The translations under genes and the position numbers were made by a program. A stretch of DNA of 64,000 nt from an uncultured delta proteobacterium (GTDB lineage Bacteria; Desulfobacterota; RBG-13-43-22), in contig CAWJJC010000023.1 of assembly GCA_963843145.1 (NCBI GenBank), forward strand, positions 82,700 to 146,699, in the 5' to 3' direction. Positions 9,348 through 57,535 of this stretch are shown here, one piece after another. Under the pieces are notes generated by a model, which was not told the origin of the DNA, made no database searches, and saw only the letters and a list, made by a program, of their open reading frames with translations. Every line of letters begins with the position of its first letter. Positions within the stretch are counted from its first letter, which is position 1.

Positions 9348-10035
9348 CTATACCATCAAATATTTCCTCTTGATTTCCTCGTTTGCCTCAAGCTCGGCCA
9401 CTGTACCACTGAAGCGCATGTGCCCGTTGTCGATTACATAGGCACGGCTGATTATCTTTAGGGCCGACCGGATATTCTGCTCAGAAAGCAAAATCGAAAT
9501 GCCAGCTTCTTTCAGCCGCAGGATTTGTTCCTCCAGGTTTTTGACGATGAGCGGGGCCAATCCCTCGGTGGGCTCGTCCAGGAGGAGGAGGTCGGGACTA
9601 CCCATGAGGGCCCTGGCGATGGTCAGCATCTGCTGCTCCCCCCCGACAGATGACCGGCCCGTCTGGTCCCGATCTCCCGGAGGGCCGGAAAAGGTCATAG
9701 ACCCGATCCTTGTTCCACTGGGACGACCGAGAGTGAACGATCTCCAGGTTGTCTTCCACGGACAGGTCGGCGAAGACCCGACGGTCGTCGGGCACATAGC
9801 CGATACCTTTGCGGAAGAGAGCATAGGGCTTTATGCCCCTAAGGTCTTCTCCATTGAACGAGATGGTCCCTTCCTTCGGAGGAGTAAGCCCCATGATGCT
9901 TCGCATGGTGGTGCTCTTGCCGGCGCCATTTCGGCCCAGGAGTCCCACCACCTCTCCCCTGGAGACGGTAAGGGAGATATCGAAAAGGACGTGACTCGAG
10001 CCGTAATAGGTATGGATGTGCTTTACATCAAGCAT
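9348..10035 (-). CDS. livF: Branched-chain amino acid ABC transporter ATPase (LivF-like), frameshifted near 9650-9700
   Basis: Walker A GRNGAGKST in ORF 9598..10035. GGEQQML and LLLDEPTEGL in ORF 9348..9824. Confidence 0.85.
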
Positions 10036-10778
10036 CCGTCGTCCCCTCCCAGATAGGCGTCCTGGACCGCCTGGTTGCAGCGCACTTCCTCGCAGGTACC
10101 CTGGATAATCGTTGCTCCCCTTACCATGACCATGATTCGACTGGCGATGCCGAAGACGATCTCCATGTCATGCTCGCAAAAAAGGATGGTCAGGCCCAGC
10201 TTCTCGGATATGGCCTTGATGAGGGCGATACACCGTGCCGTTTCCTCCGGGGCCATACCGGCCGTGGGCTCGTCAAGGATGAGAAACTCGGGATTCCCCC
10301 CTAGAGCCATGGCGATCTCCAGGACCTTTCGGTCTCCGTGGGAGAGCAATGCGGTGGTGCGGTTTTTCTTTTCTGCCAGTCCAACGTCCGACAGGATGCG
10401 ATGGGTCTCCTCCAAGGCCAGTTTCGAAGAAGGGGTGAACAGATTCCAGGTCTTCCGTTCCCGTGACAAGACGGCCACCTGGACGTTTTCGAAGACCGTC
10501 AGCCGCTGAAAGACATTGACGACCTGAAAGGACCGAGTCAGGCCTTTGCGGCAGACCTTGTGGGGCGGAAGCCCGGTAATGTCTTCGCCTTTGAAAAGGA
10601 TCCGTCCGGAATCGGATTTGATGATACCCGAAATCAGGTTGAAAAGGGTCGTCTTACCGGCCCCGTTGGGACCGATGACAGCCACGATCTCCCCTTGATT
10701 CACCTGCAAGTTAGCCTGGAATACGGCCTGGAACCCGTCGAAGGCTTTCGATAAGGACTCGACACGTAACATACTCAC
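10023..10778 (-). CDS. livG: Branched-chain amino acid ABC transporter ATPase (LivG-like)
   Basis: GPNGAGKTT, LSHG, LDEPTAG, EHDM and AYLG motifs. Confidence 0.92.
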   Translation of the reverse strand: MSMLRVESLSKAFDGFQAVFQANLQVNQGEIVAVIGPNGAGKTTLFNLISGIIKSDSGRILFKGEDITGLPPHKVCRKGLTRSFQVVNVFQRLTVFENVQVAVLSRERKTWNLFTPSSKLALEETHRILSDVGLAEKKNRTTALLSHGDRKVLEIAMALGGNPEFLILDEPTAGMAPEETARCIALIKAISEKLGLTILFCEHDMEIVFGIASRIMVMVRGATIIQGTCEEVRCNQAVQDAYLGGDDGCLM

Positions 10779-21043: not shown

Positions 21044-22210
21044 CTATTTTCCTTCCTTGACAATTTTCCCCAGGATCTTCCCTCGATTTATCTTGTCCAC
21101 CAGGGTGGGCTTCCTTAAATGCGACCTGACCAAATCCAGCACCCGGGAATTAAATAGATCCTTCCGGTTTTGAAATTCAGCGAGGTCTTTCAAATCCCGC
21201 AAGAGGGAGACCGCCTCATCATATCGTTTCGGTTGTTTGGTGGCAATGAGTTCTTCCACCTTGTTCCAAAGAATGCCTTCCTTGTTGACTAGAGACTCGA
21301 GATACTTTTTTCGTTTTTCAGCCTCTTCTTTTTTGCGCCTGGCCAAATCACGGGCCTTCTTTTCGGCCTCAATCCTTTTCCTTTCCGCAGCCAGAATTTC
21401 GGCCCGGGCCCTGATCTGACCGGCAGTCCTTCGGGGTCCTTTGACCGGCTTTATATCTCCGCGCAGTTTCCGCCTGGCTTGTTGTCGAAGTTCCACCAGG
21501 CAATGCGGGTTGTCCCCTTCGACCAGTCGCAAGAGAAGCATGTCTTTTTCTTGACTCGGTAGACTTAGAACCCACTTTCCGAATTCTTCCTGCGATAAGC
21601 CGATAGCCTGCTCGCCGGGACTGGTTTCCGCTGCCGCCGCAATGAGGTCCCTGGAGAGACGCAGGAAATCGGCGAGTCGATCCAGGGAAGCGTTAAGGGT
21701 TTTTAGACCACCTGGAACAGGTGGCTCCAACTCGTCATCCTCAATCGCCTCCGATTGCACATCGCCCAGCCAGCCAAGGTATAAGGCTCGATAATCTCCG
21801 GACATTAAATCGGCCCGTAGCGGCAAAAGAGATGCCAGCCAGCCATCCCCCTCGGCCCACTCACCTTCCTCATCCTCGGACTGAAAAGTCAGAAGGATTT
21901 TATCCCCTTTCGAATAACAGGACAGAGTTTCACCCTCAGAGTAGGGCTCTATGGTCTCTGGATCGAACAGTTTTATGGGTAGTCCCAACATAAGATGGTG
22001 AGACCCCCAATTGGCGAGGTAAAGAAAAGCATCAAAATATTGCTCCAGCCACTTTTCCGGATTACCCTTGAAGTCGCCAAAACTGTAATCCACAATGAAG
22101 CTGCTCGCCGTGATCTGGGCGCGGGAAGAGTAGGCCCTCAGATCGGATATCTGCTCCGGCGTCAGCGGCCAATCCACGGCTTGAAATTCGTAGTACTGAT
22201 ACTCGCTCAT
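21044..22210 (-). CDS. Conserved hypothetical protein with C-terminal coiled coil (MSEYQYYEF-type)
   Basis: Intact 388-aa ORF with recognisable N-terminus (SEYQYYEF..D.PLT, YFDAFLYLANWG). Function unknown. Confidence 0.7.
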   Translation of the reverse strand: MSEYQYYEFQAVDWPLTPEQISDLRAYSSRAQITASSFIVDYSFGDFKGNPEKWLEQYFDAFLYLANWGSHHLMLGLPIKLFDPETIEPYSEGETLSCYSKGDKILLTFQSEDEEGEWAEGDGWLASLLPLRADLMSGDYRALYLGWLGDVQSEAIEDDELEPPVPGGLKTLNASLDRLADFLRLSRDLIAAAAETSPGEQAIGLSQEEFGKWVLSLPSQEKDMLLLRLVEGDNPHCLVELRQQARRKLRGDIKPVKGPRRTAGQIRARAEILAAERKRIEAEKKARDLARRKKEEAEKRKKYLESLVNKEGILWNKVEELIATKQPKRYDEAVSLLRDLKDLAEFQNRKDLFNSRVLDLVRSHLRKPTLVDKINRGKILGKIVKEGK

Positions 22211-22250
22211 GATCCGGTTTCCTCAAGGTCTTCGCCGTCAAGAGGAGAGG

Positions 22251-23288
22251 TCATGAATTAACCCATCCTTCCGCCTGAAGTCGATCCCAAGCTATCCGAA
22301 TGTGATCGGGTTTAAAGATCCGACGCTTTCTATCGTTCCAAGCGGCCATGGCTGAAACGGCGGAATCGGAATCGACGGCTTCGCCGTCGTGGACCGACAG
22401 CCAGTGCACCGAGGCGAGCAGTTCCAGGCCGTAAGGAGTCTCAAACCCATCTACCAGGTCGGCCACTTTTTCAAGTTTTTCATTAGCTTCATGGTGGCTC
22501 TGGAGGAATCCATCGGCTTTTTCCCCGGATTTAGGCAACAACTCAATCTCGACATCCGGTTTCTGGGTGTCGCCATATCCCCTGATATAATGTCCTTCGA
22601 GCACTTCCAGAACTTTGTTTAGATTATGCGCGTACGGCCCGTAAAAATGCTTCACATAACGCAGCCGCAAATCCAGTCCCGATTCTTGGAGGAAGTAGGC
22701 CAGTTTCTGAATTTCCAGCAGGGTCAACCGGTAGGCATATCGGGCATATTGCTGCATAAGCTTTATAAACAATGCCCGGGCGATGGTCATACGTGGTTTC
22801 GCTGTTCCTACCGGCATCTGTTCAGCCTTCGGCGCGCCCTTGGGTTCATAAAGTCTCACCTTAACTTCCGGCAGGGAAGAGAAGGCTTGTTCGATCATGG
22901 ACCGAACTCGCTTCCAGTCCAGACCACCCAGGCCGCATCCCAAAGGTGGGATGGCGATAGACCTGATATTCCGTTCCTTCACTTCTTTCACCAGGTCCTC
23001 TAATCCGGCCACAATATCTTCGTAACGACTGCGCCCCTTCCAGTGGCGCTTTGTGGGGAAATTAACGATAAAACGTGGGTTAAACATTTGCCCGATTTCA
23101 AAAATAAACATGTGTCCGATTTTAACATCTTCGTGCCGGCAGGCTGTTTCATAGGCCTTGAAATTTTCAGGGAAGGCCTTCTTGAATTGCAGGGCAATGC
23201 CCTTCCCCATAACGCCGACGCAGTTGACGGTATTAACCAGAGCCTCCGCATCGGCGGTCAAAATATTCCCCAGAGTTAATTCGATCAT
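22251..23288 (-). CDS. darG: DarG antitoxin (macrodomain DNA ADP-ribosylglycohydrolase plus C-terminal domain)
   Basis: NTVNCVGVMGKGIA, NFPTK, PPLGCGLGGL, IQKLAYF, YGPYA and GFETPYGLELLASVHW motifs. Confidence 0.93.
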   Translation of the reverse strand: MIELTLGNILTADAEALVNTVNCVGVMGKGIALQFKKAFPENFKAYETACRHEDVKIGHMFIFEIGQMFNPRFIVNFPTKRHWKGRSRYEDIVAGLEDLVKEVKERNIRSIAIPPLGCGLGGLDWKRVRSMIEQAFSSLPEVKVRLYEPKGAPKAEQMPVGTAKPRMTIARALFIKLMQQYARYAYRLTLLEIQKLAYFLQESGLDLRLRYVKHFYGPYAHNLNKVLEVLEGHYIRGYGDTQKPDVEIELLPKSGEKADGFLQSHHEANEKLEKVADLVDGFETPYGLELLASVHWLSVHDGEAVDSDSAVSAMAAWNDRKRRIFKPDHIRIAWDRLQAEGWVNS

Positions 23289-23300
23289 TTCCGCCTCTCC

Positions 23301-23944
23301 TTATGAATAATACCATTGCCGGCAAATATCCACTGGTGTTTGTATTCCATATTTCGCAAGAATGCTTTCCACCTGCACCTTGATGCCACCGTTTATCACC
23401 CCGATGCGGGCGATAACCTCCCAGGGGCAGAATCGATAAACAAGAAATTCAGCCTGCTTTCGTCGCTGGCGGTCCATGTCCGCAATGGTATCTGCCCAAT
23501 AACTCCGCATAAACCACGTCCCAATCAATTTGGTTAAAATTCGTAACATTATCAAACCATTGGGTAAAGGCGGCAATTCCATGTCCGTCCGAGAACACGA
23601 AATCCAATTGGGCCTGGTTAATCGCCTCCACTGTAGATACCAAGTAGATCAGCGGTTCTTGGCCCTCTACGTAACCTTCAACCTGCCCCGTCTTTAATCT
23701 CAACAGCATTGGCGAACGTGGACCAAAATAAAAGGCCACATAATCGTGAACCGTCCCAGCCGACTCCGCAGCGGATGGGGCGGGCCCGTCTTACTTGCTG
23801 GATCCCGATATCGTGAATCGTTCGATAAACCCGCCCATCGTTTGGCGTATGGTTGGGCGCATGCATCCCGCCTCGCTCCAGACAAACCGATAGGTTGTCC
23901 AGGTGCATCAAACGATAGATAGGGGTTGGGCGGGGCACGGTCAT
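23301..23944 (-). CDS. darT: DarT ssDNA ADP-ribosyltransferase toxin (DUF4433), split by two +1 frameshifts
   Basis: IYRLMHLDNL; HDYVAFYFGPRSPML...FSDGHG; RRKQAEFLV...WYY, spread over three frames directly upstream of darG. Confidence 0.88.
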
Positions 23945-23963
23945 CAGGGGGTAACCTTTAGAA

Positions 23964-26900
23964 TTACTTTTCGTTAATATTCTCAGAGGCCCTAATTATT
24001 TCCTGAAGATCCACAAGATGCTTTTCTTTGAACTTAATTTCGCATCTTTGCCCGCACATCATTATCGCCAAAATGGGTTCAACATCGCCACCTTCCAAAC
24101 CTGTCTTGTATCTCTCTATTTGGAACAAGATATCTTTTGCCTCTATTGCACCATGTTGCCATTTTGCAAAATGGTCCGCACAAAGACATAGGGCATTGCC
24201 GGAGGTATCAAAAGCCCGTGCAACTTTTCGGGGAACAATATAGTTTGCCACAAAAAATGGGTGGCCATCTCTCTCAGGGAATGTCGTGCCGCATATCTGA
24301 CAGTTTCCACCATACATCTCTGTCAAATATTCCCTAACCTGATCGTCCGGTCCTTCGAGTAACATGCGAATAGTTATTTTGCGCCTCTCATTAGCATTTG
24401 GTTCATGTTGGAGATGTTTAAAATGGCCATCATAGCTTTTATCACGCCGTCTAACAGGGTTTTTCACAGTACCGTCATCTATATTTTGGTCGTTTAACTC
24501 CGTTCTCCCTAACCTATTAAAACTCTGAACCAATTCGTTTTTAAAATCTGTTTCTCCAGGAGCAGTTTCATCTGTTTTTTTTCTCTCTTCTAACACACCT
24601 GGTTGTATTCTTTTTCTAAATTCTGCAAGTAATTCCGGGTGCCTCTCAAGTTCTCTTGCCACTTCAATTATTTCCTGTGATATTCCTGCCTCTTCCGCGA
24701 GCTTGGCTACTAGCGCCTTCTTCATGCCTAATTGATTAGCAAGTTTTTCATCCCGAATATATGATTCCGGAAGATCATCAAGGCTGATATCCTCCGGCTT
24801 GTAAAAATTTCCATCCCGCTTTGGCAACCATGCAGTTTCTATTAATAATCGGCCAAAATCACTAGAAATGCGTTCGTTCTTTTTGCTATTTTCATACGTT
24901 TGCCTTGAGGAAGTCTCAACAATTCCGCGAATGCATAATAAGTTTGGACTGGCGATTGCATTCCATATAAAAGAACTCTTTTCTATATTTGGATTAGCAA
25001 TAGCATGTTCTAGTCCGTCTACTCGAATTTCCAGATCAAACCCGCTTAATCCTCGTACGTGGAACCCGTGGTCATTTCTTATAGATACATAACCTAAATT
25101 ATTTGGTTCTTTTTTCTGAATGCGAATGTTGCCTTTTACTCCTAAATCGCTGAAAAGGTTCAATGCGGCTTCTGTATAATCTGCACATACAAAACCAATT
25201 CTAAGATTTCCAGAAAAGTACGTTTCTACTCCCTTGTTTTTAAAATAGACCTCGTTTGGTTTTCTGTAGTTTGTCGCCCCTATACCAGGTGAAACGGAAA
25301 GGATAAAAGATGTTTCTTGCAATTTCTGCCGCAATCTCCGCTTCTTTTCCTCGGAGTCTGTTTCATAGGCATGCACAATCTTTTCTATGTCTCGCCGATG
25401 TTCATCGATAGGTACTGAAGATATATATTTGGGAAGTATTTGCTCCATAACCTCTGCCACAATATCTAACTCCGGAATACCTAATTCTTTTAGGAATTGA
25501 TGGGCATCTTCTTGCCGAGCTATTTCAAATTTTACTAATGGAAGGGAATTCTGAGTATCTAGTTCATTAGCCAAATAGGCGTTTGGCGAGTCGTCTTCCT
25601 GGAATGGCCTAACATGAGAACCATCTTGCAGACGAATGAACTTCTTTGACCGAAGTGGACCAGCCGGGCTCCAGTAGCTAGTCGTTGGTTTCCATAGAGC
25701 ATTTAGATTACCCACATATTTGTAAAATATTATCATCCATTCATCAGATTGCATTTCAAGGAAATTTGACGTTAATTTTCGGACAAATCCCTCAGGAGTT
25801 ATTTCTTCCACTCCACATTCTTTTGTGAGATATTTATACAAGTTGGGGGTCTTACCTTCTGTAATTTCCCCGGATAGCCACCTGTGATCACCTTCGGATA
25901 GGATCAGATTCCTTAGTTGATCGACAGAAAGAAGCTTTCTTAGTTCAGAACCGCGTGCAAGTAGTCCGTTTCTTGCCGAGATAAAATATTTTTCGTCATC
26001 ACATGGTAATAACTCATGGTCCCTGAAAGCTTCCCAGACAGCCTGGTTTATAGGATAGAATAAGTCGTATTCGTTGATGTCTTTAATACTTTTCGCTAAA
26101 GTTTCGAGAAATTCGTTTTTTAATAAGCCCAATTCCTTTATACGGGAAAGTCCTCCTACAACTAGTTTTGCTACGCATTGCATTAGCCATCGGTTCCAAG
26201 AAGTACCTCTTTTAAAGTCCTCACGTGAACTCGTTAAAATAAAATCTGCATTTATTATGAATGGAAAACCTGTATCTGATCTTACGGGCAAATAGGCAAA
26301 TATCTTCCCCCCGCCTTCTTTGTCTTCATTAAGAGGAAATACGATAGACACATCACGTTCCTTAATGTCTATTCTCTTTTCATGATGGATATCTTCCGGC
26401 TTTTCAAAACTTTCATTGAATAATATGAATTCTCTATTATTAGAAAAAGATATTCCCTGTTGTTCTCCCTTGACTAAAATCTGAACTAATGGCGACTTAG
26501 AATCATCTTTTCGAATACTCAGGCTATTACCACTATCTGAAATAATGCGTATTTCTTTTATCTTCGACAAGAATAAAATAGTCTCTGGTTCAATGTCCCT
26601 TAGCATCTCCTCGATTTTAGAATAACTAAAATCTGCTTTATCCAATGGCAATATAATTGTGGTTTGAGTTGGATCGATCTTTCCTATAGGGAGATCAATC
26701 CACCGTGGCACGATGTAACCAAGTCCAGTTTCTCCATCATGCTCTGGCAAACTAAATTGGTATCCACCTGAAATCACATATGGATTTGAAGTAATTCGAA
26801 AAACTGATTTAAACCCTATCCCCTTCTCTCCTATATACCCCTGGATCTTACTTTTTGTTGTCTTCCCGACCGCGCAAAGAGCATCTACATTTTTTGAGGA

Positions 26901-27176
26901 AAAGCCGATTTCGTTATTCTGAATAATTAGTGTCCCGTCTGATCCATTTGATTTGGTAACTGCGGTTTTCATTAGCCAAAAGGAAATAAAAGGGCCAACA
27001 TTCCCATAGGAATTGTCTTCTGCATTCTGGATTAGCTCGAAGATGAAATGTGTGTCCTTACTATAGAGGTCTTCCGCAAGGGCTTTAATTGAATTATTCA
27101 GGCTATCCTTAATGCGTTGGCTTGCTTGAAAATCATTTCGAATTTTTCTGATATGTTCCTGCTGATCATGACTCAT
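23964..27176 (-). CDS. Sacsin/NOV-like GHKL ATPase protein with C-terminal HNH-like domain
   Basis: ELIQNAED, NNEIGFS, IGEKGIGFKSVF and FIINADF..SSRE. C-terminal CQICG...NALCLCADH. ATG lies 1 nt after the helicase stop. Visibly AT-rich. Confidence 0.82.
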   Translation of the reverse strand: MSHDQQEHIRKIRNDFQASQRIKDSLNNSIKALAEDLYSKDTHFIFELIQNAEDNSYGNVGPFISFWLMKTAVTKSNGSDGTLIIQNNEIGFSSKNVDALCAVGKTTKSKIQGYIGEKGIGFKSVFRITSNPYVISGGYQFSLPEHDGETGLGYIVPRWIDLPIGKIDPTQTTIILPLDKADFSYSKIEEMLRDIEPETILFLSKIKEIRIISDSGNSLSIRKDDSKSPLVQILVKGEQQGISFSNNREFILFNESFEKPEDIHHEKRIDIKERDVSIVFPLNEDKEGGGKIFAYLPVRSDTGFPFIINADFILTSSREDFKRGTSWNRWLMQCVAKLVVGGLSRIKELGLLKNEFLETLAKSIKDINEYDLFYPINQAVWEAFRDHELLPCDDEKYFISARNGLLARGSELRKLLSVDQLRNLILSEGDHRWLSGEITEGKTPNLYKYLTKECGVEEITPEGFVRKLTSNFLEMQSDEWMIIFYKYVGNLNALWKPTTSYWSPAGPLRSKKFIRLQDGSHVRPFQEDDSPNAYLANELDTQNSLPLVKFEIARQEDAHQFLKELGIPELDIVAEVMEQILPKYISSVPIDEHRRDIEKIVHAYETDSEEKKRRLRQKLQETSFILSVSPGIGATNYRKPNEVYFKNKGVETYFSGNLRIGFVCADYTEAALNLFSDLGVKGNIRIQKKEPNNLGYVSIRNDHGFHVRGLSGFDLEIRVDGLEHAIANPNIEKSSFIWNAIASPNLLCIRGIVETSSRQTYENSKKNERISSDFGRLLIETAWLPKRDGNFYKPEDISLDDLPESYIRDEKLANQLGMKKALVAKLAEEAGISQEIIEVARELERHPELLAEFRKRIQPGVLEERKKTDETAPGETDFKNELVQSFNRLGRTELNDQNIDDGTVKNPVRRRDKSYDGHFKHLQHEPNANERRKITIRMLLEGPDDQVREYLTEMYGGNCQICGTTFPERDGHPFFVANYIVPRKVARAFDTSGNALCLCADHFAKWQHGAIEAKDILFQIERYKTGLEGGDVEPILAIMMCGQRCEIKFKEKHLVDLQEIIRASENINEK

Positions 27177-27177
27177 C

Positions 27178-30100
27178 TTAGACACCCTGTTCCACAATTA
27201 AGACCCCATGAGCAACTGGATCAGAAATAAGTTCTGCTCTCTCCATAGCAATATCCAACTCCTGGATACGTCGAGCGTAATCGGCCTCCGCCGCTGTAAT
27301 TTGAGACTGGCGCATCCTTTGGATTTTCTCATCGTTGGCTTGCTTAAGCTGTTCTTCAAGAAGCGAGATCCGCGCACGATGGCTCGTTGCCAGGCTTTCC
27401 CTTCGGTACGCGGCTAATTCCTGAGTTCGCCTTTGATGTTTGGCACGGGCTTCGGACCACAAAATATAATGTTGAGTATCCAAATCATCCCATTTAGAGG
27501 AGCAATCCTCCCCGGGTTTATCCATCGGGGCCTCTTTTGCTTTTTCAAGCAGGCCTGGAAAGGTGTGCTGTAATCATTTGCGAAGAGGCAATCGGCTGTA
27601 GTATCAAGTCCTCCTTAATGCCGTGGAATCGCCATTGATAGATCGCAAATTCGTATCTACCTTCCGGGACATCATTGCTCTTTGCCTTCAAGGCGGTGAC
27701 GATTCGTTCCCTGGTATCAAGCGACATGGCTGCCTGTTTCACCAGGGGATGGGTGGGCATAATGAAAAACAGCCTCCGGATACTGAATAGCGCACTCGGA
27801 CTCGAAGGTAACGGACAGATGGGGATTCCCGCCCTTTGAGCCAGTTCTCCCATTCCCGAAAAGCTGAAATGTTTTGTCTGGGGAGTTGTTGGAAGTCACG
27901 CAAGAGACTGCTTCGGGCCTCTTGCGAAAGACGCAGTGTTTTCAAAGGCTTTTCGCCGAGAATGAATTCCTGCTCTTTTCCGCAGGTTTGCTGAAGATAA
28001 AAAGTGACCAGCCTGTGTATCGACGCCGGCAGACAACCAGAAGCTTGACGCCTCTTCGATCTCCTTCTTCATCTGGTCCTCGGGGAGGCGGATCCCGAAG
28101 AGTTCCAATTGCCTCTGTTCGAGTTCTTCTTGCTCCTGGATCAAGCGAATCTTGTTATCTGCCAATTGCTGGAGCTTTGAACTGCGCTCGGCATCACTAA
28201 GAAAAAAATTCTCTGCGATGTTGCGGATTTCCTTGGTGATTTCCCCAAGTATTTCTTCGCTGCCGCCCAAGGCATGGTTAAACACCCCTATCCGGACCAG
28301 ACAGCGTTCATAGATATCCGCATCGACCGTCCCCGGCGTAATCAGATTGAAAATGGCGACGCTCTCGCTCTTCTGGCCCTTTCGATCCAGACGGCCGATC
28401 CTTTGCTCCACCCGCATCGGATTCCAAGGGAGATCATAGTTCACCAGGCAATCACAGAACTGGTAATCCAATCCTTCACAGCCAATTTCTGAAAACAGCA
28501 GAACGTCAAGACACTCGTCAAGGTCTCGCCGCTTCGCAAAACGGTCACGAAATTCTAAACGCGTCTTCATCCGGTGTTCCACCATGGATCAGCCCAACCC
28601 GGAAACCGTCCGCCTGGAGATGGTCATAAAGGTAGTGAAGGGTATGCCGAAAGCTGCTGAAAAGCATCACCTTATTGTTCGGCAGGCTTTGCTTGTCCCG
28701 GATGATCTGGCGGAGGGCTTCAAGCTTGGGGTCATCCGGGTCGAGGTTCCGCGCTTTCTCCAGGATGGTTTGAATGCGTGATTCTAAAAGGCCAATAGCG
28801 TCGCCTTGTGGGAGCCGATTCCGTGTTGTCAGCTTCATCCCAAGACTAATTCATCCAGATGCCGGTTGAGGATGTCCCCCAGGAAAGGGGCTAGACCGAA
28901 AAGGCAACTGGCCGCCTGACGGCGGATCGTGGTCATCATGAACTTGACATTGACATCCCCGTGAAGCTTGCCGAATATCTCCGCCTGAATCTGGAGTAGA
29001 TCGTCATGCAATTGTTTCTGGGCCGGGGTGAATTCAACAGCAACGGTTTCAGGCCTTCGTATGGTGAAGTCGCCGATATCGCGCCGGCGTGTCCGGTTGA
29101 TTATCCCTGAAAAGGTATGCAGGGCTTCGAGGTCGGTTATAAGCTGCACCCGCTCCTCTAAGGCGATTTTTCCTTCCGAGAGCCGATTTCGTATCCGATT
29201 GAATTCAGGATTATATCTGAGAATGGCCTGGCCCCAGGAGGTAGCCGCAGCTTCATCCAGTGCGGCAGTGGCCCCAACAGTCCAATCCGGCTCCTGAGCC
29301 CGAGCCAGGTTAACCGCCTGGTTAATAAACGGATTCGGTTCGGCCATATGCTCATAGCTTTCCTGGTCGATAATCAGATCCGGACGCAGGGTGTTCAACA
29401 AAACAAAAAGATCATGGCTGCCGAGCTGGATGGGTGTTCCCGATAAAAATAACACCGCCTCGGCGTGGTCACAGAAGAACCTCACGGCCTTATGGCTGAA
29501 GGTGTCTTGATTCCGGATGTGGTGGGCCTCATCCACGATGACCAGATCAAAGCGTGGAGGTGGATCCAGATCCAGGAGCCCTTTTTTTCGCTTTCTTTTC
29601 CGGTCAGGCCCCGAACCATAAAGGAGTGCCTCGTCGAACAACGAATAGGGAACAATCACTCTCTGGTGCTGCTCAGGCCAGACCCCATCCAGATCCATCT
29701 CGTTGATGCAATATCGTAAGGTACTGCCGTCGAGATGAGTGAAGCGCTCCTCAAATCGTTTCATCTCATTCTGCCATTTGCGCTCGATAACCAGCGGTCG
29801 CGGGCAGATAATCAGAATAGAACGGAGGTCGCGCCGGGCCTGCAGCTCCCGAAGAATTAACCCCGCTTCAATGGTCTTGCCCACACCTACACCGTCGGCA
29901 ATCAGTAATCTTGGACGGTCCGCCCTGATAAATCGAAGCACCGGCCTGAACTGATAAGGGATGAAATCAACTCGAGCGGCATTTAGAGAATAAAGTGTGG
30001 ATAGTCCCGGATATCGAATCTGTAACGCGGTGAGGTAGGCGTGGAACTGATCACAGGGCAAGAAATGAAATTCCTCTCCCCCCAGTTCTTCAGCCTTAAG

Positions 30101-30784
30101 TTGGGACCCATAGTACGTCTGCGTCTCGTTTTCGATGAATACCTTATAGCGGTTTTCCGGCTTTCCGGGCACCATAGCAACCACCGCGCCCCGGAGAGCA
30201 GGATTTGATTTCAGGGATACAATCTGCCCCGGTTCAAACTCAAACCCTTGATTTATCTTATCCTGAGATAGTTGTTGCTCAATGGTTTCTCCCTGGGGAG
30301 AGAAAGGCATTTCCATGGCCAACAGGGAGGTCTTGGTAGCCCGCACTTTTTGGATTAAACTTTCATCCGCCTCAATGACCGTAGCAAAACGTTGCAGGGT
30401 GTCCAAGTCGCGGTAGACGTCATCAACCGGGAACCCTTCTGTTCCAGCATGCGCCCATCGGTTACGAACGGTCTGCATTTCCTTGACAAAATGGCGAGCT
30501 TCGGGGGTCAGGTCAAACTTTGATGATATCTGGTACCAGTTTTGGTCGAAGACTCGAAGCAGGGCGGCTAGGTCCAAAGCTGTCAGTGACCCTATTTTTT
30601 GTTGTTCTATTCGGCGTTGTTGCTGGATCGATAGGTTATTGACAACGAGTTGTTTCCACCAGCCCTCATGAAGGGAGGGAAGAACTTTCTCCAGAAACAA
30701 GGCAAGCTGCCCGGCGACCTCTTTCAAAAGAGTGGTCATGGAGCCTTCGAGGTGGTTGGATTCAAATGACATGATCTGGCCCAT
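27178..30784 (-). CDS. SNF2/RapA-DrmD-like helicase with N-terminal Swt1-like HEPN domain; 3' half broken by several frameshifts
   Basis: DLAALLRV...RNRWAH (HEPN RxxxxH), [29 protein letters not shown] and [19 protein letters not shown] across ORFs 28835..30784, 28545..28838, 27896..28585 and smaller pieces down to 27178. Confidence 0.85.
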
Positions 30785-31020
30785 GCGGAATATATTTCTT
30801 TCCCGGCTACCTTTTTACAGGTAATCGTTCTATAGCTCGGCTTACCAGAAACATTGATTTCTTAGGAATCGTGCCTCCAATCGGAACGTTCCTAATTCAG
30901 CGTTACTATGGAGAAAGAAGGGCTTACTGAATAAGATTGCCCACATTATTATGAAATTCGGCAACTTTGTCTATCGGTTTTATCCGTTTTTCAGCAATAG
31001 AACCCATAAACGGATCCTCC

Positions 31021-31764
31021 TCAGGCACTGATCACCTCATAATAGTGATTGGGAACCATCCCGGCAAACAGCACCGCTCCCGGGCAGGGGACGACATATT
31101 TTTTTTTGAACGATGATCCGATGATATTATAGAATTCCAGGCAGGCCGAGCAGACCGTTCGGGTTTTGCCCAGGGAATAGGGCACGGAGTGGCCGTCCTC
31201 CGGGACCTGATAGGCCGGTTCGATGAAGTTGGCGTGATTGGCGCAGTGGCCGATGAACAATTCTTCGAAGGTCAGGCCCTGAAGACCCATGACCTTCATC
31301 CATCTCCGCTGTTCTTCCCGCGCGTCGGCCCCGATAGTCTCCCATTCCTCCGGCCGGGAATACTGGTAGCTTTCCCGTTGGATCAAGGCCCGTTGTTTTT
31401 CTCCATCCGGCAATCGGGGTGGATGGAAGGAAGAGTTTCGGATAAGGACCGAGGGCGCCGGGGCGACGTCCGGCAGGAGAACGGAACTGACCACCAGGGT
31501 CTGGCCCCGTCGGGGGGAATGGCGGTACCAGGAAAACTGCCTTCGGCACAAATCATAGTTGTCCCAGACCTCCGGGGCCACCAGGCCGATTTCAATCCGG
31601 CGCGACAGGGGCAGGCAGACCGCCTTTTTGACCTCGGTGACCGCCAGGTCGCTTCGGCCCAGAGACTGTCTCAGACCTTCGACCTCCGGCCCGGGGATCC
31701 AATAGACATATTTGCAAAAAGGTTTGATGGTTCCGTCCTTCCCCGATCGGGCAAAACCTCCCAA
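31021..31764 (-). CDS. Hypothetical protein with Cys-rich C-terminus
   Basis: 247-aa ORF with HCANH, CSAC and VPCPG motifs. Start uncertain. Confidence 0.6.
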   Translation of the reverse strand: MGGFARSGKDGTIKPFCKYVYWIPGPEVEGLRQSLGRSDLAVTEVKKAVCLPLSRRIEIGLVAPEVWDNYDLCRRQFSWYRHSPRRGQTLVVSSVLLPDVAPAPSVLIRNSSFHPPRLPDGEKQRALIQRESYQYSRPEEWETIGADAREEQRRWMKVMGLQGLTFEELFIGHCANHANFIEPAYQVPEDGHSVPYSLGKTRTVCSACLEFYNIIGSSFKKKYVVPCPGAVLFAGMVPNHYYEVISA

Positions 31765-31887
31765 AAATATTTGAAATATTTTTTGCTGTAAAAAAAACCA
31801 CTTAACAGATTTAAAGATAACGTCTTTTAATTTAGATTCTTGCCTCCATGGTTAGAGATAAATTCTCAAAAGAATGGAGGTAAGAAT

Positions 31888-32307
31888 CTAAGCGCCGTGC
31901 CAATCTTCCAAGATCAACCCCGAGAAGTTGCCATAGTCTTTGCTATTTCTGGTCACCAGGGTTAATCCGTTGGTAACGGCGATCGCGGCGATCTGGCCAT
32001 CCACAAAGGACGGCGGCTTACCGGACAGGGATAGGCGGGCCCTTTCGAGGGCATGCCAGCGGGCGGCTTGTTCATCATAAGGGAGTATGGGCAGATTTCT
32101 TGAAATAACTTCTTCGAGAAACAGCTCCAGTATTTCCCTCTTTCGTGACTGAGGCATCTGGTAGCAACCAAACTGCAATTCATGCCAGACCGGTGCGGCC
32201 GTGACCAGCTCTTGTTGGTATTGCCGGCATCTTTCCTCCACCCCCCGGTCCGGATTGGGTTTAACCAATTCAGAAATAAAATTGGTATCTAAGAGGTATT
32301 TCATCAA
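31888..32307 (-). CDS. vapC: VapC PIN-domain toxin
   Basis: YLLDTNFISE, DGQIAAIA and LVTRN..DY motifs. Confidence 0.93.
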   Translation of the reverse strand: MMKYLLDTNFISELVKPNPDRGVEERCRQYQQELVTAAPVWHELQFGCYQMPQSRKREILELFLEEVISRNLPILPYDEQAARWHALERARLSLSGKPPSFVDGQIAAIAVTNGLTLVTRNSKDYGNFSGLILEDWHGA

Positions 32308-32585
32308 TCCAAGTCGACCGACCGGCCCACCGTATTGTCCCGAAGGTTGGACAAATCCCGATCTTCAATGACAATGCCCTCGGAGATCATAATGTTCCGA
32401 ACCTTTCCCAAGGCCTCCCAAAGCCCCTGGCCTTTCTGCTGCAACCTTTGGTAATCCCTTTGAGGAACCACCGCCGCCACAGCCCGGCCATGACGAGTGA
32501 TCTCCACGATGGAGCCCTGTTCCACTTCATGAATAATCGCCGGGAGCTTATTCTTGGCCTCAGCCACCGAAACCCTTCTGTTCAT
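32304..32585 (-). CDS. Phd/YefM-family antitoxin
   Basis: VAEAKNKL...ITRHGRAVA. Overlaps the vapC start. Confidence 0.92.
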   Translation of the reverse strand: MNRRVSVAEAKNKLPAIIHEVEQGSIVEITRHGRAVAAVVPQRDYQRLQQKGQGLWEALGKVRNIMISEGIVIEDRDLSNLRDNTVGRSVDLD

Positions 32586-45118: not shown

Positions 45119-45229
45119 TCACCCGCCGTCGGTGATCGGCTGACCGGCGGCGGGTCCTGGCCGGTAATCCGGCACCGCCCCCAGCCTGTCTTTTATCAGC
45201 CCAAGGCCTTTGAGGAATCGCTACGGGCC

Positions 45230-46578
45230 ATGAGGGAGGAACGATTGATGAAATGGAATATTCCCACGCTGGAGGAACTGGAAGACGATATCTGGCAATG
45301 CACGGCCTGCGGGACCTGCAAGGTGGCCTACGATTACGGCCCCCCTTCCCAATGCCGGGAAATCTGTCCCTCGGGAACCGAATTTGGTTTCGAGGGGTTT
45401 ATGGCCTCCAAAGGCAAGATCGCCTTTGCCCGTGGTATGTTGAGCGGAGAACTCGAATGGGATGATGAACTGCTGGACGCCCTTTATAGATGCACGATCT
45501 GCGCCGGCTGCCAGAACCAGTGCCAACTGGACCATAAACCCCATCATCCCCGAAATTTTCGAAGCCATGCGCCGCAAGGCGGTGGAAGACGGGGTAGGGC
45601 CTATGCCGGCCCAGAAGGTCATTGCCCAGTCCATGCGGAGCTATGACAATCCCTACCAGGGCCCCCGACGGGTTCGATTGGATTGGACCCGGCCCTTCAA
45701 GAAGGAAAAGCAGAAACCCATCAAGAATATCACTCAAAGAACCGGCGCCCGTCCTCTTCTTTGTCGGTTGCACCGGCGCCTACAATGTCCCGGCCCGGGT
45801 GATGCCTCAGGCCACGGCCTCCATCTTCCGAAACTGGGAGTGGATTTCGGCATCCTGGGTGAAAACGAACTCTGCTGCGGCTCCACGGCCATGCGCTTGG
45901 GGGATGCCGAGGCCTTTAAACGGATGGCCGAAGCCAATCTGCAGACCTTCAAAACACTGCATGAGAGCAAGGGGTGGAGACGATCGTCACCTCCTGCGCC
46001 GGCTGCTATCGGGCCATCCTTAAGGATTACGCCCTGGCCGCTGGATATGCGAGGACCTGATGGAGGGGAATCAAGGTGATCCATATGACCCAATTTCTCA
46101 ACGAATTCATCCAGGCCGGCCAATTGCACATGTTCCAGGCCAGTCCCGATGAAAGTCACCTACCATGATCCCTGCCACGCGGGCCGGCATTTGAACAAAT
46201 ACCTGGTGGACGAAGACGGCTCCCAACTCTGGCCCGGAGCCTATATCAGCCTGAACGAGGAGGACTGTCTCTATGATATTCCCGCGGGACCTCCTCAAGG
46301 CCATCCCCGGCATCGAGCTGGTCGAGATGGAACGGACCCGGGCCAATTCCTTCTGCTGCGGAGGAGGCGGCGGGGTCATGACCGGTTTCCCGGATTGGGC
46401 CCAGCGCAATGCCGCCCTTCGCGTCCAGGAAGGGTTGGAAACCGGCGCCGAACATATGGTTTCCATCTGCCCTTTCTGCCATTTTAATTTGAACCAGGGC
46501 GCCCAGGCCATCGGCAGCACTATGAAACTTTTCGACCTGATCGAGTTGATTGACCAGGCGCTTCCCGAAAAGTCATAA
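45230..46578 (+). CDS. GlcF/HdrD-like Fe-S CCG-domain protein, broken by several frameshifts
   Basis: CTACGTC, CTICAGCQNQC, LCCG, YHDPCHAGR, FCCGGGGG and ICPFC across five overlapping ORFs. Confidence 0.8.
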
Positions 46579-48135: not shown

Positions 48136-48987
48136 GTGCTTGCCAACATCACCATCGCTTTGCTCAATGGCGTGATCTGGGGTTTGATCATGGCCCTGAT
48201 CGCCCTGGGCCTGAATATGATTTTCGGCCTCCTCCACATCATCAACATGGCCCACGGCGCCCTGTATATGCTGGGAGCGGTTGCCGGATGGTATGTCATT
48301 GAGACTACAGGAAATTTTTGGGCCGCCCTGTTTATCGCCCCGCTGATTATCGGGGCCGTCGGCCTGGTCATCGAGCGGGGCCTGCTGCGCACCATTGAAG
48401 ACCAGCCCCTGATGACCATCATTTGCACCTTCGGCATCATGTTGGCCGTCCAGCACTTGGCCTTGATGATCTTTGGAGGGACCCCCCGTCGCATGGCCTC
48501 CCCGATTACCTATCGCTTCGCCTTGTTCGATCTGCAATACCCCCTGATGCGGATCGTTATCGCCCTGATTTCGCTGGCCCTCATGGCCGCCTTGTGGTTT
48601 TTCATCAATCGAACCAAATACGGCATGTGGATGCGGGCCGTGGTCCAGGACCGCGACATGGCCGTCGCCCTGGGCATTCCGGTTCACAAGGTGTATATGT
48701 GGACCTTTGTGCTCGGTTCGGGACTGGCCGCCTTCTCCGGGGTACTGGCCGCCCCGATCGTGGCCGTGGAATTCATGATGGGCCGCGAGGTCCTGATCAT
48801 GGCCTTTATCATCGTTATCGTGGGCGGCATGGGCAGCCTGGAAGGTTCGGTGGTGGCCGCCATTATCATTTCCCTGATCCAGGGCGTCGGCTCCCTGTTC
48901 GTCCCCCCGGCCCTGGCCACGGTCTTTTCCCTGGCCTTCATGATCATCGTGCTGCTGATCCGTCCGCAAGGACTGTTCGGCGATTAG
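48136..48987 (+). CDS. livH: LivH-like ABC permease
   Basis: GLNMIFG...NMAHG and RPQGLFG motifs. Confidence 0.9.
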   Translation: MLANITIALLNGVIWGLIMALIALGLNMIFGLLHIINMAHGALYMLGAVAGWYVIETTGNFWAALFIAPLIIGAVGLVIERGLLRTIEDQPLMTIICTFGIMLAVQHLALMIFGGTPRRMASPITYRFALFDLQYPLMRIVIALISLALMAALWFFINRTKYGMWMRAVVQDRDMAVALGIPVHKVYMWTFVLGSGLAAFSGVLAAPIVAVEFMMGREVLIMAFIIVIVGGMGSLEGSVVAAIIISLIQGVGSLFVPPALATVFSLAFMIIVLLIRPQGLFGD

Positions 48988-49947
48988 AGGTATCCCGTGC
49001 TCTTAAAAAGGAAAACTCCCCGGCCTTCTTGCTGGGTTTTGGATTGGTCCTGTTGGTCCTGGCGGCCCTGCCCTTCACCATGGGACTTTTCTTTCAGACC
49101 TTTGTCACCGAAATTTTAATCTGGGTCCTTTTCGCCCTTTCCTTTGATCTGATCTTCGGGTATACCGGCCTCCTGAGCTTCGGCCAGGCCCTTTTTTTTG
49201 GTGTGGGCGGCTATACCGTCGGCATCCTGATCCTCAAGCTGGGGTGGTCCACCGGGACCGGCTTTCTCTTTTCGATATTCGTGCCCATGATTTTTGCCTG
49301 GTTTGTGGGTTATTTTTCGGTCAGGCTGACCGGCATTCACTTTGTCATTATTACCCTGATCTTCGCCCTGATCGGCAGTACCATCGGAGAGACTTGGAGC
49401 GTCGGTTACCGGCGGGGCCGATGGCCTGGTTTTTCCGGTCACCCCGATCCACTTCGGCCTGTTCCAGGTTGATCTGATGGATATCAAGTCGAATTATTAC
49501 TTCGCCCTGATCATTGTCGCCCTCTCCTACCTTCTCTTGCGCCGGATAGTTCAGTCGCCTTTGGGGAAAGTTCTTATTGCCATCCGGGAAAACGAAGACC
49601 GGGCCCGCTTGATCGGCTATTCCGTGGAACGCTACAAGTTGATCGCCTTTGTCATCGCCGGGGCCTTCTCCGGACTGGCCGGCGGCTTATACAGTCTAAC
49701 GCTTAAATATTCCTCGGCCAACTTCCTGCACTGGTCGGTTTCCGGGCATGCGGTGGTCTACACTATTGTCGGGGGCATGGGGACCCTGATCGGTCCCGTC
49801 CTAGGCACCGCTTTGATCATGTCCCTGGAACACTATCTAATCGATATTTTGGAGGGAACGGAACTCATCATCGGAATCGTACTGGTAGCGATGATTCTGC
49901 TCGCCCCTCAAGGTATCGTCGGGCTTCTAAAAAGAAAGGGACGTTGA
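48988..49947 (+). CDS. livM: LivM-like ABC permease (start uncertain; frameshift near 49400-49440)
   Basis: GYTGLLSFGQA in ORF 48423..49472. SPLG...IRENE..A and PQG in ORF 49477..49947. Confidence 0.8.
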
Positions 49948-57000: not shown

Positions 57001-57535
57001 GGCCGGAATTATCGATAAATCCGGAAAGTTTAATAAAAATATGGAACACCCTCGCTTACGCTATTCAGGGGATCAATATGAGTATGTCATCGCCTGGACC
57101 CAGGAGACCTCCATCGGCCAGGACGTGGTCGTCTGTCAGGACGACATCCGGGCCATCCAGCTCGGTAAGGCGGCCATGTATGCCGGCAGCAGAATCCTCA
57201 TGGAAACCCTGGGTATCGAAAAAGTGGACAAGGTCATATTAGCCGGGGCCTTCGGAAGCTACATCGACAAACTTTCGGCGGCCGTGCTGGGAATGTTCCC
57301 GGATTGCGACCCCAAGAATGTCTATTCCGTGGGCAACGCCGCCGGTGACGGGGCCCGGATGGCCTTGCTCAATGCGGACAAACGTCTGGAAGCCGATAAC
57401 TATGCCCGGAAGGTGGAATACATCGAATTGACCCTTTCTCCGAAATTCGAAAAGATGTTCGCCCATTCCATGTGGATTCCGCACATGAAGGATGCCTTCC
57501 CCAACCTGCAGGAATTCCTGCCACCCAAGAAATAA
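54083..57535 (+). CDS. RACo/AcsV-type ATP-dependent corrinoid reductive activator (2Fe-2S plus ASKHA) with an inserted GltD/NfnB-like FAD/NAD(P)H/Fe-S module
   Basis: RACo motifs CGEQAICGTC..RLACQ, AVDVGTST, IDIGTNGE, GPAFEG, GICGSG and LAGAFG. Insert motifs APCRVECP, CGRVCTHPCE, GSGPAG, GGGSVA, FAGGD and RCLHC. Confidence 0.9.
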   Translation: MASGENEKCLVIFQPSGCRGYVDRGKTLKQASVALGVDIEGVCGEQAICGTCKVRIEEGEFEKYGVRSGRESISAMGPSERKFFNLRQVDEGYRLACQAQILNDVVIFVPEESRMGKQVVRKAATSRPIAVKPVVRKYTLALVKATLKDNLGDWERVSAALETQYGLKDLTIDYEALMFLQDLVRQGEWKITVSVWHGKEVIRVEPGFNEKSYGLAVDVGTSTVAGYLCDLSDGTVVATASMMNPQIVYGEDVMSRISYTMTNPEGLEILNQAIIDGLNNIAAEVAESAGIKRQDILDMSLVGNTCMHHIYLNINPRYIGRSPFPPSLHHSLDVKARDFGFKIPQEKEREEKGKYAPCRVECPAGVNVDDFLYLIAQRKFREALELVRLSYPFPGVCGRVCTHPCEQICERGKVDEPISIRAAHRFLSDFELAAGREKATPVELKKEAPIAVVGSGPAGLACAYDLINRGYPVTVFEAQSQAGGMMRYGIPEYRLPKRILDDEVRYIEELGLEIRTNTPVKNLKDLFDQEYKAVFLATGTWKSQKLNVPGEESPGVMMALDLLREVNSGAKVELSGKVAVVGGGSVAVDAARMAKRLGAREVHLICLESDDLTCQDRMPAQDLEIDQAREEGVIVHPSLGVGAIVVDQGRVSAVETIGCVSVYDDRGRFAPQFSEEPALPIAVETVIVAIGQRAEEDLFPDLARQPSGSIQVDENTFETSVPGVFAGGDGASGPANVIKAVRAGKEAAISIELYLTGKDMKEDRPKALKAVEEIPKEGVKKEVRQIAPVLALDKRQGFDEVEIGFEEAQVIPEAIRCLHCAVYAQKEAFEEKEAHGWGIKIAPGAYVHCLPIEAGFVGADNVGVLIAEAPYHQDSLELIIDIGTNGEIILGNKDRLISASCATGPAFEGAQLRFGMRAAPGAIEKIAIDKETKEVRFKVIDESRWNTEMKPEEIKAKGICGSGIIDALPQLFLAGIIDKSGKFNKNMEHPRLRYSGDQYEYVIAWTQETSIGQDVVVCQDDIRAIQLGKAAMYAGSRILMETLGIEKVDKVILAGAFGSYIDKLSAAVLGMFPDCDPKNVYSVGNAAGDGARMALLNADKRLEADNYARKVEYIELTLSPKFEKMFAHSMWIPHMKDAFPNLQEFLPPKK

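Follow-up and report, generated by a model that had tools for sequence, protein, structure and literature searches.

We analyzed a 64,000-nucleotide (nt) window of DNA from an uncultured delta proteobacterium, in which a 9.7-kb stretch (positions 21044-30784) carries five genes, all on the minus strand. In the direction of reading they encode a DrmD-like SNF2 helicase with an N-terminal Swt1-type HEPN domain, a sacsin-type GHL ATPase resembling Tiamat (TmtA), the toxin DarT, its macrodomain antitoxin DarG and a hypothetical protein of 388 amino acids (aa). A first-pass annotation, made from the sequence letters, had taken these genes for one undescribed five-gene defense operon; its reading of orientation and domain content (HEPN_Swt1, SNF2 and Helicase_C; a SACS/GHL ATPase; DarT; DarG; a 388-aa protein without a family) was confirmed. 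We assign a probability of about 80% to a different reading, namely that the stretch is a defense-island mosaic of independent modules and not one five-gene system, with a helicase plus Tiamat-like ATPase pair, a DarT/DarG pair and an orphan gene lying side by side, co-oriented by happenstance inside a long, tightly packed minus-strand region. The first module, the helicase gene followed by the ATPase gene, would be a conserved two-gene system and the sole multi-gene unit besides DarTG; its ATPase appears to carry an HNH-like domain instead of the usual C-terminal PD-(D/E)xK nuclease. The second would be a DarT/DarG toxin–antitoxin (TA) cassette of the phage-defense kind and the third the solitary conserved 388-aa hypothetical, with a Phd–VapC pair upstream of the stretch. 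The locus is an ordinary defense island with a core of two genes whose arrangement is already catalogued in the accessible part of a 2026 preprint (bioRxiv 10.64898/2026.09.30.754977, October 2026). This core, which consists of a Tiamat-like Type IV protein and a DrmD-like HEPN–SNF2 helicase, adds a member to that newly catalogued kind.

The helicase–ATPase pair in related loci

The ATPase was aligned with 26 homologues, and 80 loci carrying related ATPase genes (L numbers below) were fetched with up to 10 kb per side. These were the best tblastn matches from one scan of species-representative genomes, which did not include the window's own genome, and all 14 window proteins were searched against them by tblastn. 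A helicase of ≥40% identity adjoined the ATPase gene in 44 of the 80 loci, and the helicase 3′ end alone was present in six more (L009, L010, L027, L036 and L043 (contig edge), and L016). Upstream sequence was lacking in L001 and L012, and in another 27 loci a distant ATPase homologue (26-40% identity) matches over the N-terminal 350-810 residues alone and such a helicase is missing. Among the 51 closer loci with upstream sequence, the helicase or its 3′ end was thus adjacent in 50. In all-against-all clustering, just two open reading frame (ORF) families were widely shared: besides the window, that of the ATPase reached 80 loci and that of the helicase 52. Every other ORF cluster spanned ≤10 loci, mostly reflecting Poribacteria synteny. 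Because only the helicase and the ATPase recur across related loci, we consider the conserved unit to be two genes, and the helicase/GHKL module that the first-pass annotation had singled out within its operon holds up as such a pair. The operon as a whole does not: DarT, DarG and the 388-aa protein, as well as a 247-aa ORF upstream of the helicase, VapC and Phd, were detected by tblastn in none of the 80 loci.

Many housekeeping genes were found among 42 neighbor ORFs scanned with Pfam. The pair is flanked, for example, by RtcB and an oxidoreductase in L004, PGM and a Mur ligase in L022, dnaE in L008 and rpoB/rpoC in L006. Unrelated defense genes adjoin it elsewhere, including a Gabija-like OLD plus UvrD (L037), type I restriction–modification (R-M) genes (L039, L048), SIR2 plus UvrD (L053) and a PLD-helicase (L047). 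Neither ORF clustering of the loci nor Pfam analysis of the 42 neighbors revealed a methyltransferase family recurring beside the pair, and none was present among the 14 ORFs scanned at 21044-32585, in agreement with the earlier observation that a methyltransferase is absent. The accompanying proposal of a DNA mark set by DarT instead of a methylase is unsupported, as the pair occurs without DarT and without such a recurring family. In this sample, the pair was found in Thermodesulfobacteriota, Poribacteria, Chloroflexota, Cloacimonadota, methanogens and rhizobial plasmids. The last include plasmids of cultured Rhizobium bangladeshense and Ensifer adhaerens, where the two genes are annotated merely as ‘helicase-related protein’ and ‘hypothetical protein’.

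Individual loci showed further variants. L016 retains only the last ~98 helicase codons before the ATPase gene (9676-9969) despite 10 kb of upstream sequence, and in L017 the 10 kb ahead of the ATPase gene contain no helicase; both are possible cases of motor gene loss. In three Poribacteria loci (L018 7893-9581, L020 7831-9588 and L026 7652-9670), an AAA_15/AAA_21 (OLD/AriA/GajA-like) ATPase gene lies between helicase and ATPase. In L039 (14557-18000) and on the Ensifer plasmid (L091, 15264-18653), the pair is followed by a third gene, whose product joins a TM0106-type RecB-like nuclease to an SF1 helicase. A second Tiamat-like gene is located directly downstream of the pair in L003 and L021, and in L042 the helicase is flanked on either side by one.

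The ATPase ORF is intact, with 1077 aa from a TTG start or 1070 aa from an ATG at 27176, and has at least 2242 homologues. It matched the PADLOC TmtA model PDLC03972 at 4.6e-101 (residues 13-809 on profile 4-809 of 1302), SACS (PF25794) at 2.8e-13 and NCBIfam P_loop_sacsin with 66.5 bits (cut-off 50), and the Bergerat motifs ELIQNAEDN, NNEIGF and GEKGIGFKS are invariant in alignment A1. The TmtA match places part of the set under a named system and, as judged by the PADLOC hidden Markov models, contradicts the prediction that only DarTG would be called. A NOV_C or PD-(D/E)xK nuclease was not detected in the ATPase, for which Pfam gave SACS alone and the TmtA match ended at 809 of 1302. Its last ~130 residues instead contain the HNH-like motif series CQIC ... 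ANYIVPRK ... LCLCADHF. A profile of 18 ATPase C termini (A3) compared with the PDB pointed to the HNH restriction endonuclease TagI (6ghs, E 0.012). An AlphaFold2 (AF2) model of the last 250 residues, with a predicted local distance difference test (pLDDT) score of 77.5, yielded TagI (E 4.4e-3, probability 1.00), EcoKMcrA (0.99) and the HNH domains of CBASS Cap5 and Cas9 in Foldseek, with none of the matches at E <= 0.001. The window's ANYIVP aligns with GAHIRP of TagI, placing Tyr where TagI has a His that we take to be the catalytic position of HNH enzymes. Because of this replacement, the HNH-like end probably binds DNA or a partner rather than cutting. The His is kept in L036, L038, L039 and L047 and replaced by Tyr, Ser or similar residues in many other loci.

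The ATPase gene also differs from its partner in composition and rate of change. Its GC content is 0.394, compared to 0.516 for the helicase and 0.548 for the remaining window, so that the AT-rich core described earlier is real and confined to the sacsin-type gene. Across loci, the ATPase gene lies below the partner helicase in 42 of 43 cases (mean 6.8 points) and below its flanks in 36 of 37, while helicase GC equals that of the flanks; since low ATPase GC recurs in this way, the AT-rich core is a family trait and not a local oddity. The helicase is better conserved than the ATPase in 44 of 44 loci, with identities to the window copies of 69.0% and 44.5%, respectively, in the 17 loci with full-length ATPase alignment. 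Low GC and lower conservation both fit, and together suggest, an ATPase gene that is a fast-evolving or exchangeable cassette beside a stable motor.

Intact helicase homologues are single ORFs of 1185-1227 aa. That of L022 matched PADLOC DrmD (PDLC02623) at 1.9e-116, with residues 181-1154 on profile 3-968 of 1040, and the same homologue reached 319.8 bits against NCBIfam DISARM_DrmD, whose equivalog cut-off is 610. As this score is below the cut-off, the helicase is DrmD-like and not DrmD. For the window helicase, the PADLOC HmaA match (2.1e-13) was weaker than that to DrmD (9.1e-57). Its SNF2 motifs GVGKT and DEAH are present, with G298-T302 and D416/E417 invariant in alignment A4, and the Rx4H motif of its HEPN domain, RNRWAH, is conserved in the A4 consensus.

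The HEPN region, corresponding to the window's first 150-180 residues, was matched in 23 of the 44 loci and absent in 18, with three undetermined; Pfam upheld the call in one locus of each kind (L022 with, L004 without). The HEPN-less helicases measure 1020-1055 aa, and HEPN is an accessory of the helicase. Many of their ATPase partners also lack His at the TagI position; therefore, those pairs contain no recognizable nuclease. The 18 HEPN-less loci (L003-L007, L011, L013-L015, L018, L020, L021, L023-L025, L031, L032 and L045) comprise 17 from Poribacteria or unclassified metagenome-assembled genomes (MAGs) and the Thermodesulfovibrio MAG L045. On the Rhizobium (L090, 8423-8953) and Ensifer (L091, 8397-8951) plasmids, a small ORF of 176-184 aa overlaps the start of a HEPN-less helicase and could be a split-off N-terminal module. 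Tested as a split-off HEPN, it had no match in Pfam, NCBIfam or PADLOC.

Table 1 Features of the five-gene stretch and its upstream flank (window positions)
Feature	Position	Strand	Evidence
DrmD-like SNF2 helicase, N-terminal Swt1-type HEPN	27178..30784	minus	Pfam and PADLOC on ORF pieces
HEPN_Swt1 domain of helicase	30374..30718	minus	PF18731 at 8.7e-18, residues 23-137
SNF2 ATPase N-lobe of helicase	29339..29911	minus	PF00176 at 2.8e-18, residues 292-482
Helicase_C C-lobe, split over two frames	28376..28727	minus	PF00271 positions 2-53 in piece 2, 61-110 in piece 3
Tiamat-like sacsin-type GHL ATPase, intact ORF	23964..27197	minus	PADLOC TmtA, Pfam SACS, NCBIfam P_loop_sacsin
Bergerat-fold ATP-binding core of ATPase	26763..27101	minus	SACS PF25794, residues 33-145
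C-terminal HNH-like (beta-beta-alpha-metal) domain of ATPase (predicted)	23967..24350	minus	profile vs PDB, AF2 and Foldseek
darT, three frames	23301..23944	minus	Pfam, PADLOC, NCBIfam, tblastn
darG, intact macrodomain antitoxin	22251..23288	minus	NCBIfam, PADLOC
Orphan conserved hypothetical, 388 aa	21044..22210	minus	no family match
Phd/YefM antitoxin	32304..32585	minus	Pfam PhdYeFM; TIGR01552
PIN/VapC toxin	31888..32307	minus	Pfam PIN
Promoter-like site, 10/12 matches, in 236-nt gap upstream of helicase	30945..30973	minus	consensus scan

DarTG, the 388-aa gene and the spacing of the stretch

DarG was identified with 479.1 bits by NCBIfam antitoxin_DarG (cut-off 250) and at 8.1e-138 by PADLOC. 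The DarT pieces at 23678-23944, 23449-23739 and 23301-23582 cover positions 1-50, 62-135 and 134-201 of the Pfam profile; PADLOC and NCBIfam agree on DarT, with each piece below the 150-bit equivalog cut-off. In tblastn, the intact DarT proteins of two plasmids aligned with the window in frames -1, -2 and -3, the QAEFL segment included. DarG-like genes are present on 139 plasmid records, from which two DarTG contexts were examined. A Nostoc plasmid contains a bare DarT–DarG pair. A Meiothermus plasmid (L089, 116-11973) has the order hsdM, DUF262, hsdS, DarT, DarG, AAA ATPase, DUF4276 and hsdR; because the cassette is nested here in a type I R-M operon, we conclude that DarTG inserts into other defense operons. 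DarTG thus forms a cassette complete in itself, whether alone or nested, and the 388-aa gene is absent from both plasmid contexts.

For the 388-aa protein, Pfam, PADLOC, NCBIfam and PHROG searches gave no family, and ESM Atlas gave unnamed clusters only. Its family nonetheless comprises at least 3810 proteins, the best 120 of which share 50-86% identity with it and are all unnamed. Its AF2 model (pLDDT 76.9) had no match at E <= 0.001 in PDB and BFVD; kinase-like top structural matches, with template modeling (TM) scores near 0.1, were discarded. The family occurs on 26 plasmid records. In all seven plasmid contexts examined, the gene was found without DarTG, the helicase or the sacsin gene, contrary to the joint occurrence that a shared operon had implied. 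It was accompanied there by toxin–antitoxin genes, by genes for AIPR, HNH or TnpB proteins, or by ordinary metabolic genes (for example, ndvB). The 388-aa hypothetical is, therefore, an orphan that is part of neither the pair nor DarTG, and this large, well-conserved family without a Pfam model may deserve a separate study.

The intergenic gaps from the helicase to the hypothetical are 1, 19, 12 and 40 nt, as reported before. Equally tight gaps occur throughout the neighborhood: a gene for an ABC substrate-binding protein begins 6 nt past the hypothetical, and gaps of -35 to 30 nt are common among the 23 tabulated minus-strand genes at 5244-36268. For this reason, spacing and strand are no evidence for a five-gene unit beyond the neighborhood norm. 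Promoter and terminator scans were likewise uninformative. Between 20000 and 32700, we counted 14 terminator-like sites versus 15.5 +/- 3.9 in shuffles and 17 promoter-like sites versus 14.0 +/- 3.7; because these counts do not exceed the shuffles, they were not used as operon evidence in either direction. The earlier remark that no internal terminator is visible stands for the four gaps, with the qualification that the terminator scan as a whole performs at chance level.

One undescribed five-gene system, in which a helicase/GHKL sensor would act through HEPN, HNH and DarT effectors and DarT would mark DNA instead of a methylase, is highly improbable on these data. Its genes share a strand, narrow gaps free of terminator-like sites and defense-type domains in all parts, but the tight spacing runs on into the ABC transporter gene, and DarT, DarG and the hypothetical stand beside the pair in none of the 80 related loci. 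Elsewhere, housekeeping genes flank the pair, DarTG and the hypothetical each occur independently, and the ATPase already falls under a named system model (TmtA). The first-pass annotation had itself named missing co-occurrence and a match to a named system as grounds for abandoning its proposal; the genes do not co-occur and the match is partial, so the five-gene claim fails by its own terms.

A looser connection seems unlikely rather than highly improbable. DarTG, perhaps with the 388-aa gene, might have been inserted at the 3′ end of the pair's operon and be co-transcribed with it, forming a facultative local partnership in which a back-up abortive-infection or addiction cassette stabilizes the island. 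The Meiothermus plasmid offers a precedent, with DarTG between hsdS and hsdR at similarly tight spacing, and the 19-nt gap before darT has neither a terminator-like site nor a promoter-like site at 10/12 matches. Against this, the arrangement is known from this one locus and from 0 of 80 elsewhere, the promoter and terminator scans are at chance level, and DarT is frame-broken in this assembly.

Several points count against a mosaic of independent modules. The four gaps contain no terminator-like site and the sole good promoter-like site lies upstream of the helicase; the five genes could be co-transcribed here and could be functionally coupled locally. Rare five-gene arrangements could exist beyond the 80 sampled loci. 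Within the pair family, the effector step differs, with HEPN lacking in 18 of 44 loci and the TagI His variably replaced; moreover, the mechanism proposed below for the pair is built on analogy, and its equation with Type IV-B of the preprint is inferred from that part of the preprint's text that is accessible. We still favor the mosaic of modules. With the five-gene unit unsupported, cloning effort on the wrong unit is spared, and the finding is reduced to a well-defined module of two genes with a broad distribution.

Upstream of the stretch, the vapBC pair noted earlier was recovered as a Phd/YefM–PIN (vapBC-like) pair at 31888-32585. The two genes overlap by 4 nt, with the antitoxin gene upstream of the PIN toxin gene, and score 43.7 bits for PhdYeFM (cut-off 29.8) and 40.9 bits for PIN (cut-off 23.6); VapC equivalog models remained below their own cut-offs on the toxin. 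Between vapC and the helicase, ~0.75 kb (31021-31791) contain three overlapping ORFs on both strands without a family match. One of these, the 247-aa ORF at 31021-31764, had no Pfam, PADLOC, NCBIfam or PHROG family, and its ESM Atlas recognition was below the mark (best score 0.84). This ORF may not be a gene, and the stretch may be non-coding or a broken gene.

In a different part of the window, a plus-strand gene at 54083-57535 encodes an 1150-aa fusion of RACo-type linker, middle and C-terminal ASKHA domains with Fer2, Fer4_20 and a Pyr_redox_2 flavoprotein module. Its surroundings include URO-D-like methyltransferase genes and a gene for a B12-binding protein; such a fusion is unusual for a corrinoid activase.

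Frame breaks in the helicase and darT genes

While the ATPase, darG and hypothetical genes are intact, the helicase and darT are not open frames in this assembly. The helicase consists of five ORF pieces at 28835-30784 (649 aa), 28545-28838 (97 aa), 27896-28585 (229 aa), 27545-27853 (102 aa) and 27178-27525 (115 aa). Comparison with the intact L022 helicase by tblastn located about six frame changes near 28846, 28812, 28562, 28030, 27850 and 27545, all within the 3′ 1.3 kb and none in the first 1.9 kb. DarT is in three pieces with two frame changes. Outside 21044-30784, broken genes were sought in suspicious regions only. There, an ABC ATPase (9601-10167 and 9351-9830, minus strand) and a LivM-like permease (48399-49469 and 49477-49947, plus strand) are frame-broken, and a GlcF-like Fe-S/CCG protein lies in three frames (45119-46575, plus strand).

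Eleven of the 12 frame junctions found in the window share the +1 (or -2) type (binomial P 0.003), and eight lie within 1978 nt belonging to helicase and darT, where 0.37 would be expected at a uniform rate (Poisson P ~6e-9). Because of the one-sided +1 bias and the breaks in housekeeping genes, insertion-type sequence errors are the more likely cause, rather than decay. The clustering could result from low local read support, for example, through strain variation in a defense island, or from real decay.

In a decaying island, the helicase and DarT breaks would be real, leaving pair and toxin dead while ATPase, DarG and hypothetical survive. This account is the less likely one but deserves serious consideration, since the junctions cluster as described and helicases have deteriorated elsewhere, with only a 3′ end in L016, none in L017 and split helicase ORFs in several loci. 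TA pairs often lose the toxin and keep the antitoxin, which would fit as well. Decay does not readily explain why 11 of 12 junctions share one type or why the ABC ATPase, the LivM-like permease and the GlcF-like protein are broken likewise, a pattern that points to systematic assembly insertion error. In addition, the pieces between breaks are 55-86% identical to intact homologues and contain only frame-shift-induced stops. We, therefore, regard the breaks as more probably sequence errors.

A model for the pair and its relation to known systems

Comparison across loci shows that the pair is the unit, that a methylase is not needed and that HEPN and the TagI-aligned His position are variable. 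Its mechanism is most likely to resemble those of Tiamat and of HEPN–motor fusions, from which we draw the following model by analogy. The GHL ATPase would serve as a clamp or sensor for nucleic acid that is gated by ATP, as reported for the Bacillus cereus Tiamat, which hydrolyzes ATP, nicks duplex DNA and cuts single-stranded DNA (10.64898/2026.09.30.754977). Its HNH-like end would bind DNA or a partner protein and the SNF2 motor would translocate on DNA. Where present, the HEPN domain with its intact Rx4H motif might cut RNA as the effector, such that the infected cell is shut down and the infection aborted. No methylation mark would be involved.

A bolder version appears rather improbable to us. 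Here, the pair would be an autonomous, methylation-free defense, without a recognizable nuclease in many lineages, in which clamping and translocation powered by ATP trap or silence foreign DNA and the ATPase gene is an exchangeable specificity cassette. Eukaryotic MORC-type GHKL ATPases that work with SNF2 remodelers provide a likeness. Two analyses addressed contact between the partners. Complex prediction for the C-terminal third of the L022 helicase (residues 840-1201, A4) and the C-terminal part of the L022 ATPase (residues 620-1028, A5) scored 0.00 in both runs, which is no evidence either way. A Rosetta-stone search of 2103- to 5000-aa proteins with the C-terminal region of the helicase, itself weak evidence, found no fused helicase–ATPase.

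The pair combines a motor of the DISARM type with a protein related to NO VEIN of plants and sacsin of humans, and its mechanism bears on how the whole sacsin-type ATPase clade works. Intact copies on cultured Rhizobium and Ensifer plasmids make it directly testable. In the accessible text of the 2026 preprint, no experimental test of this Tiamat-like subtype is reported.

Among known systems, DarTG is represented in the window by DarT and a macrodomain DarG with a 12-nt gap, DarG lying above its equivalog cut-off. The window's DarT differs in being spread over three frames, nothing ties this DarTG to the other genes, and neither DarT nor DarG occurs in the accessible text of the preprint (10.64898/2026.09.30.754977).

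Hma (helicase–methylase–ATPase) and the MORC/paraMORC GHKL systems in R-M contexts likewise combine an SNF2-type helicase with a GHKL-type ATPase in a defense setting. Unlike Hma, the locus contains no methyltransferase; Hma was ruled out on this absence and on the HmaA match (2.1e-13), weaker than that to DrmD.

For class 1 DISARM, the likeness resides in the motor, as the intact helicase homologue aligns with the DrmD profile almost end to end. The window's helicase family stays below the DrmD equivalog cut-off, and to our knowledge DrmD has no HEPN domain. The 14 ORFs scanned at 21044-32585 include no separate gene for DrmA, DrmB, DrmC or a methylase, and none recurs in the 80 loci; the sole match to a DrmA model (PDLC02572, 1.6e-21) is a weaker cross-match on the helicase itself. 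A partial DISARM with a true DrmD was ruled out by the sub-cut-off score and the missing partner genes.

PrrC/RloC-type systems, in which a HEPN RNase is attached to an R-M ATPase, similarly join such an RNase to the motor of a DNA-directed defense. Table 1 of PMC3710099 (as far as accessible) gives the fusion of a Swt1-type HEPN with a SWI2/SNF2 ATPase as an ‘active’ architecture. HEPN domains on such motors were proposed there as RNase fail-safes of DNA-directed systems. Release of the HEPN RNase when the DNA arm fails would, by analogy, be a workable model for the pair. In contrast to PrrC/RloC, the window pair has no R-M partner or anticodon-nuclease evidence, and HEPN is dispensable in 18 of 44 loci.

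Tiamat (TmtA) is a single-gene anti-phage GHL ATPase–nuclease (see also 10.64898/2026.09.30.755639). The window ATPase shares its sacsin-type Bergerat ATPase and middle region. It differs in having an HNH-like domain in place of a detected NOV_C or PD-(D/E)xK nuclease and, by context, in being tied to a helicase in 50 of 51 closer loci. The accessible text of the preprint (10.64898/2026.09.30.754977) places the Tiamat/sacsin clade apart from MORC and names helicases, Swi/Snf included and often nuclease-fused, as the commonest neighbors of Tiamat-like genes. Its Type IV-A proteins are like the window ATPase in that an HNH-like fold without catalytic residues replaces the nuclease. Its Type IV-B neighborhood, with a helicase fused to a nuclease, is matched in the window, where HEPN_Swt1 plus SNF2 lie 1 nt upstream of the ATPase; that text does not give the IV-B helicase as an SNF2 protein with HEPN. 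From the text, we infer that Type IV-B corresponds to the HEPN–SNF2 family of the pair described here.

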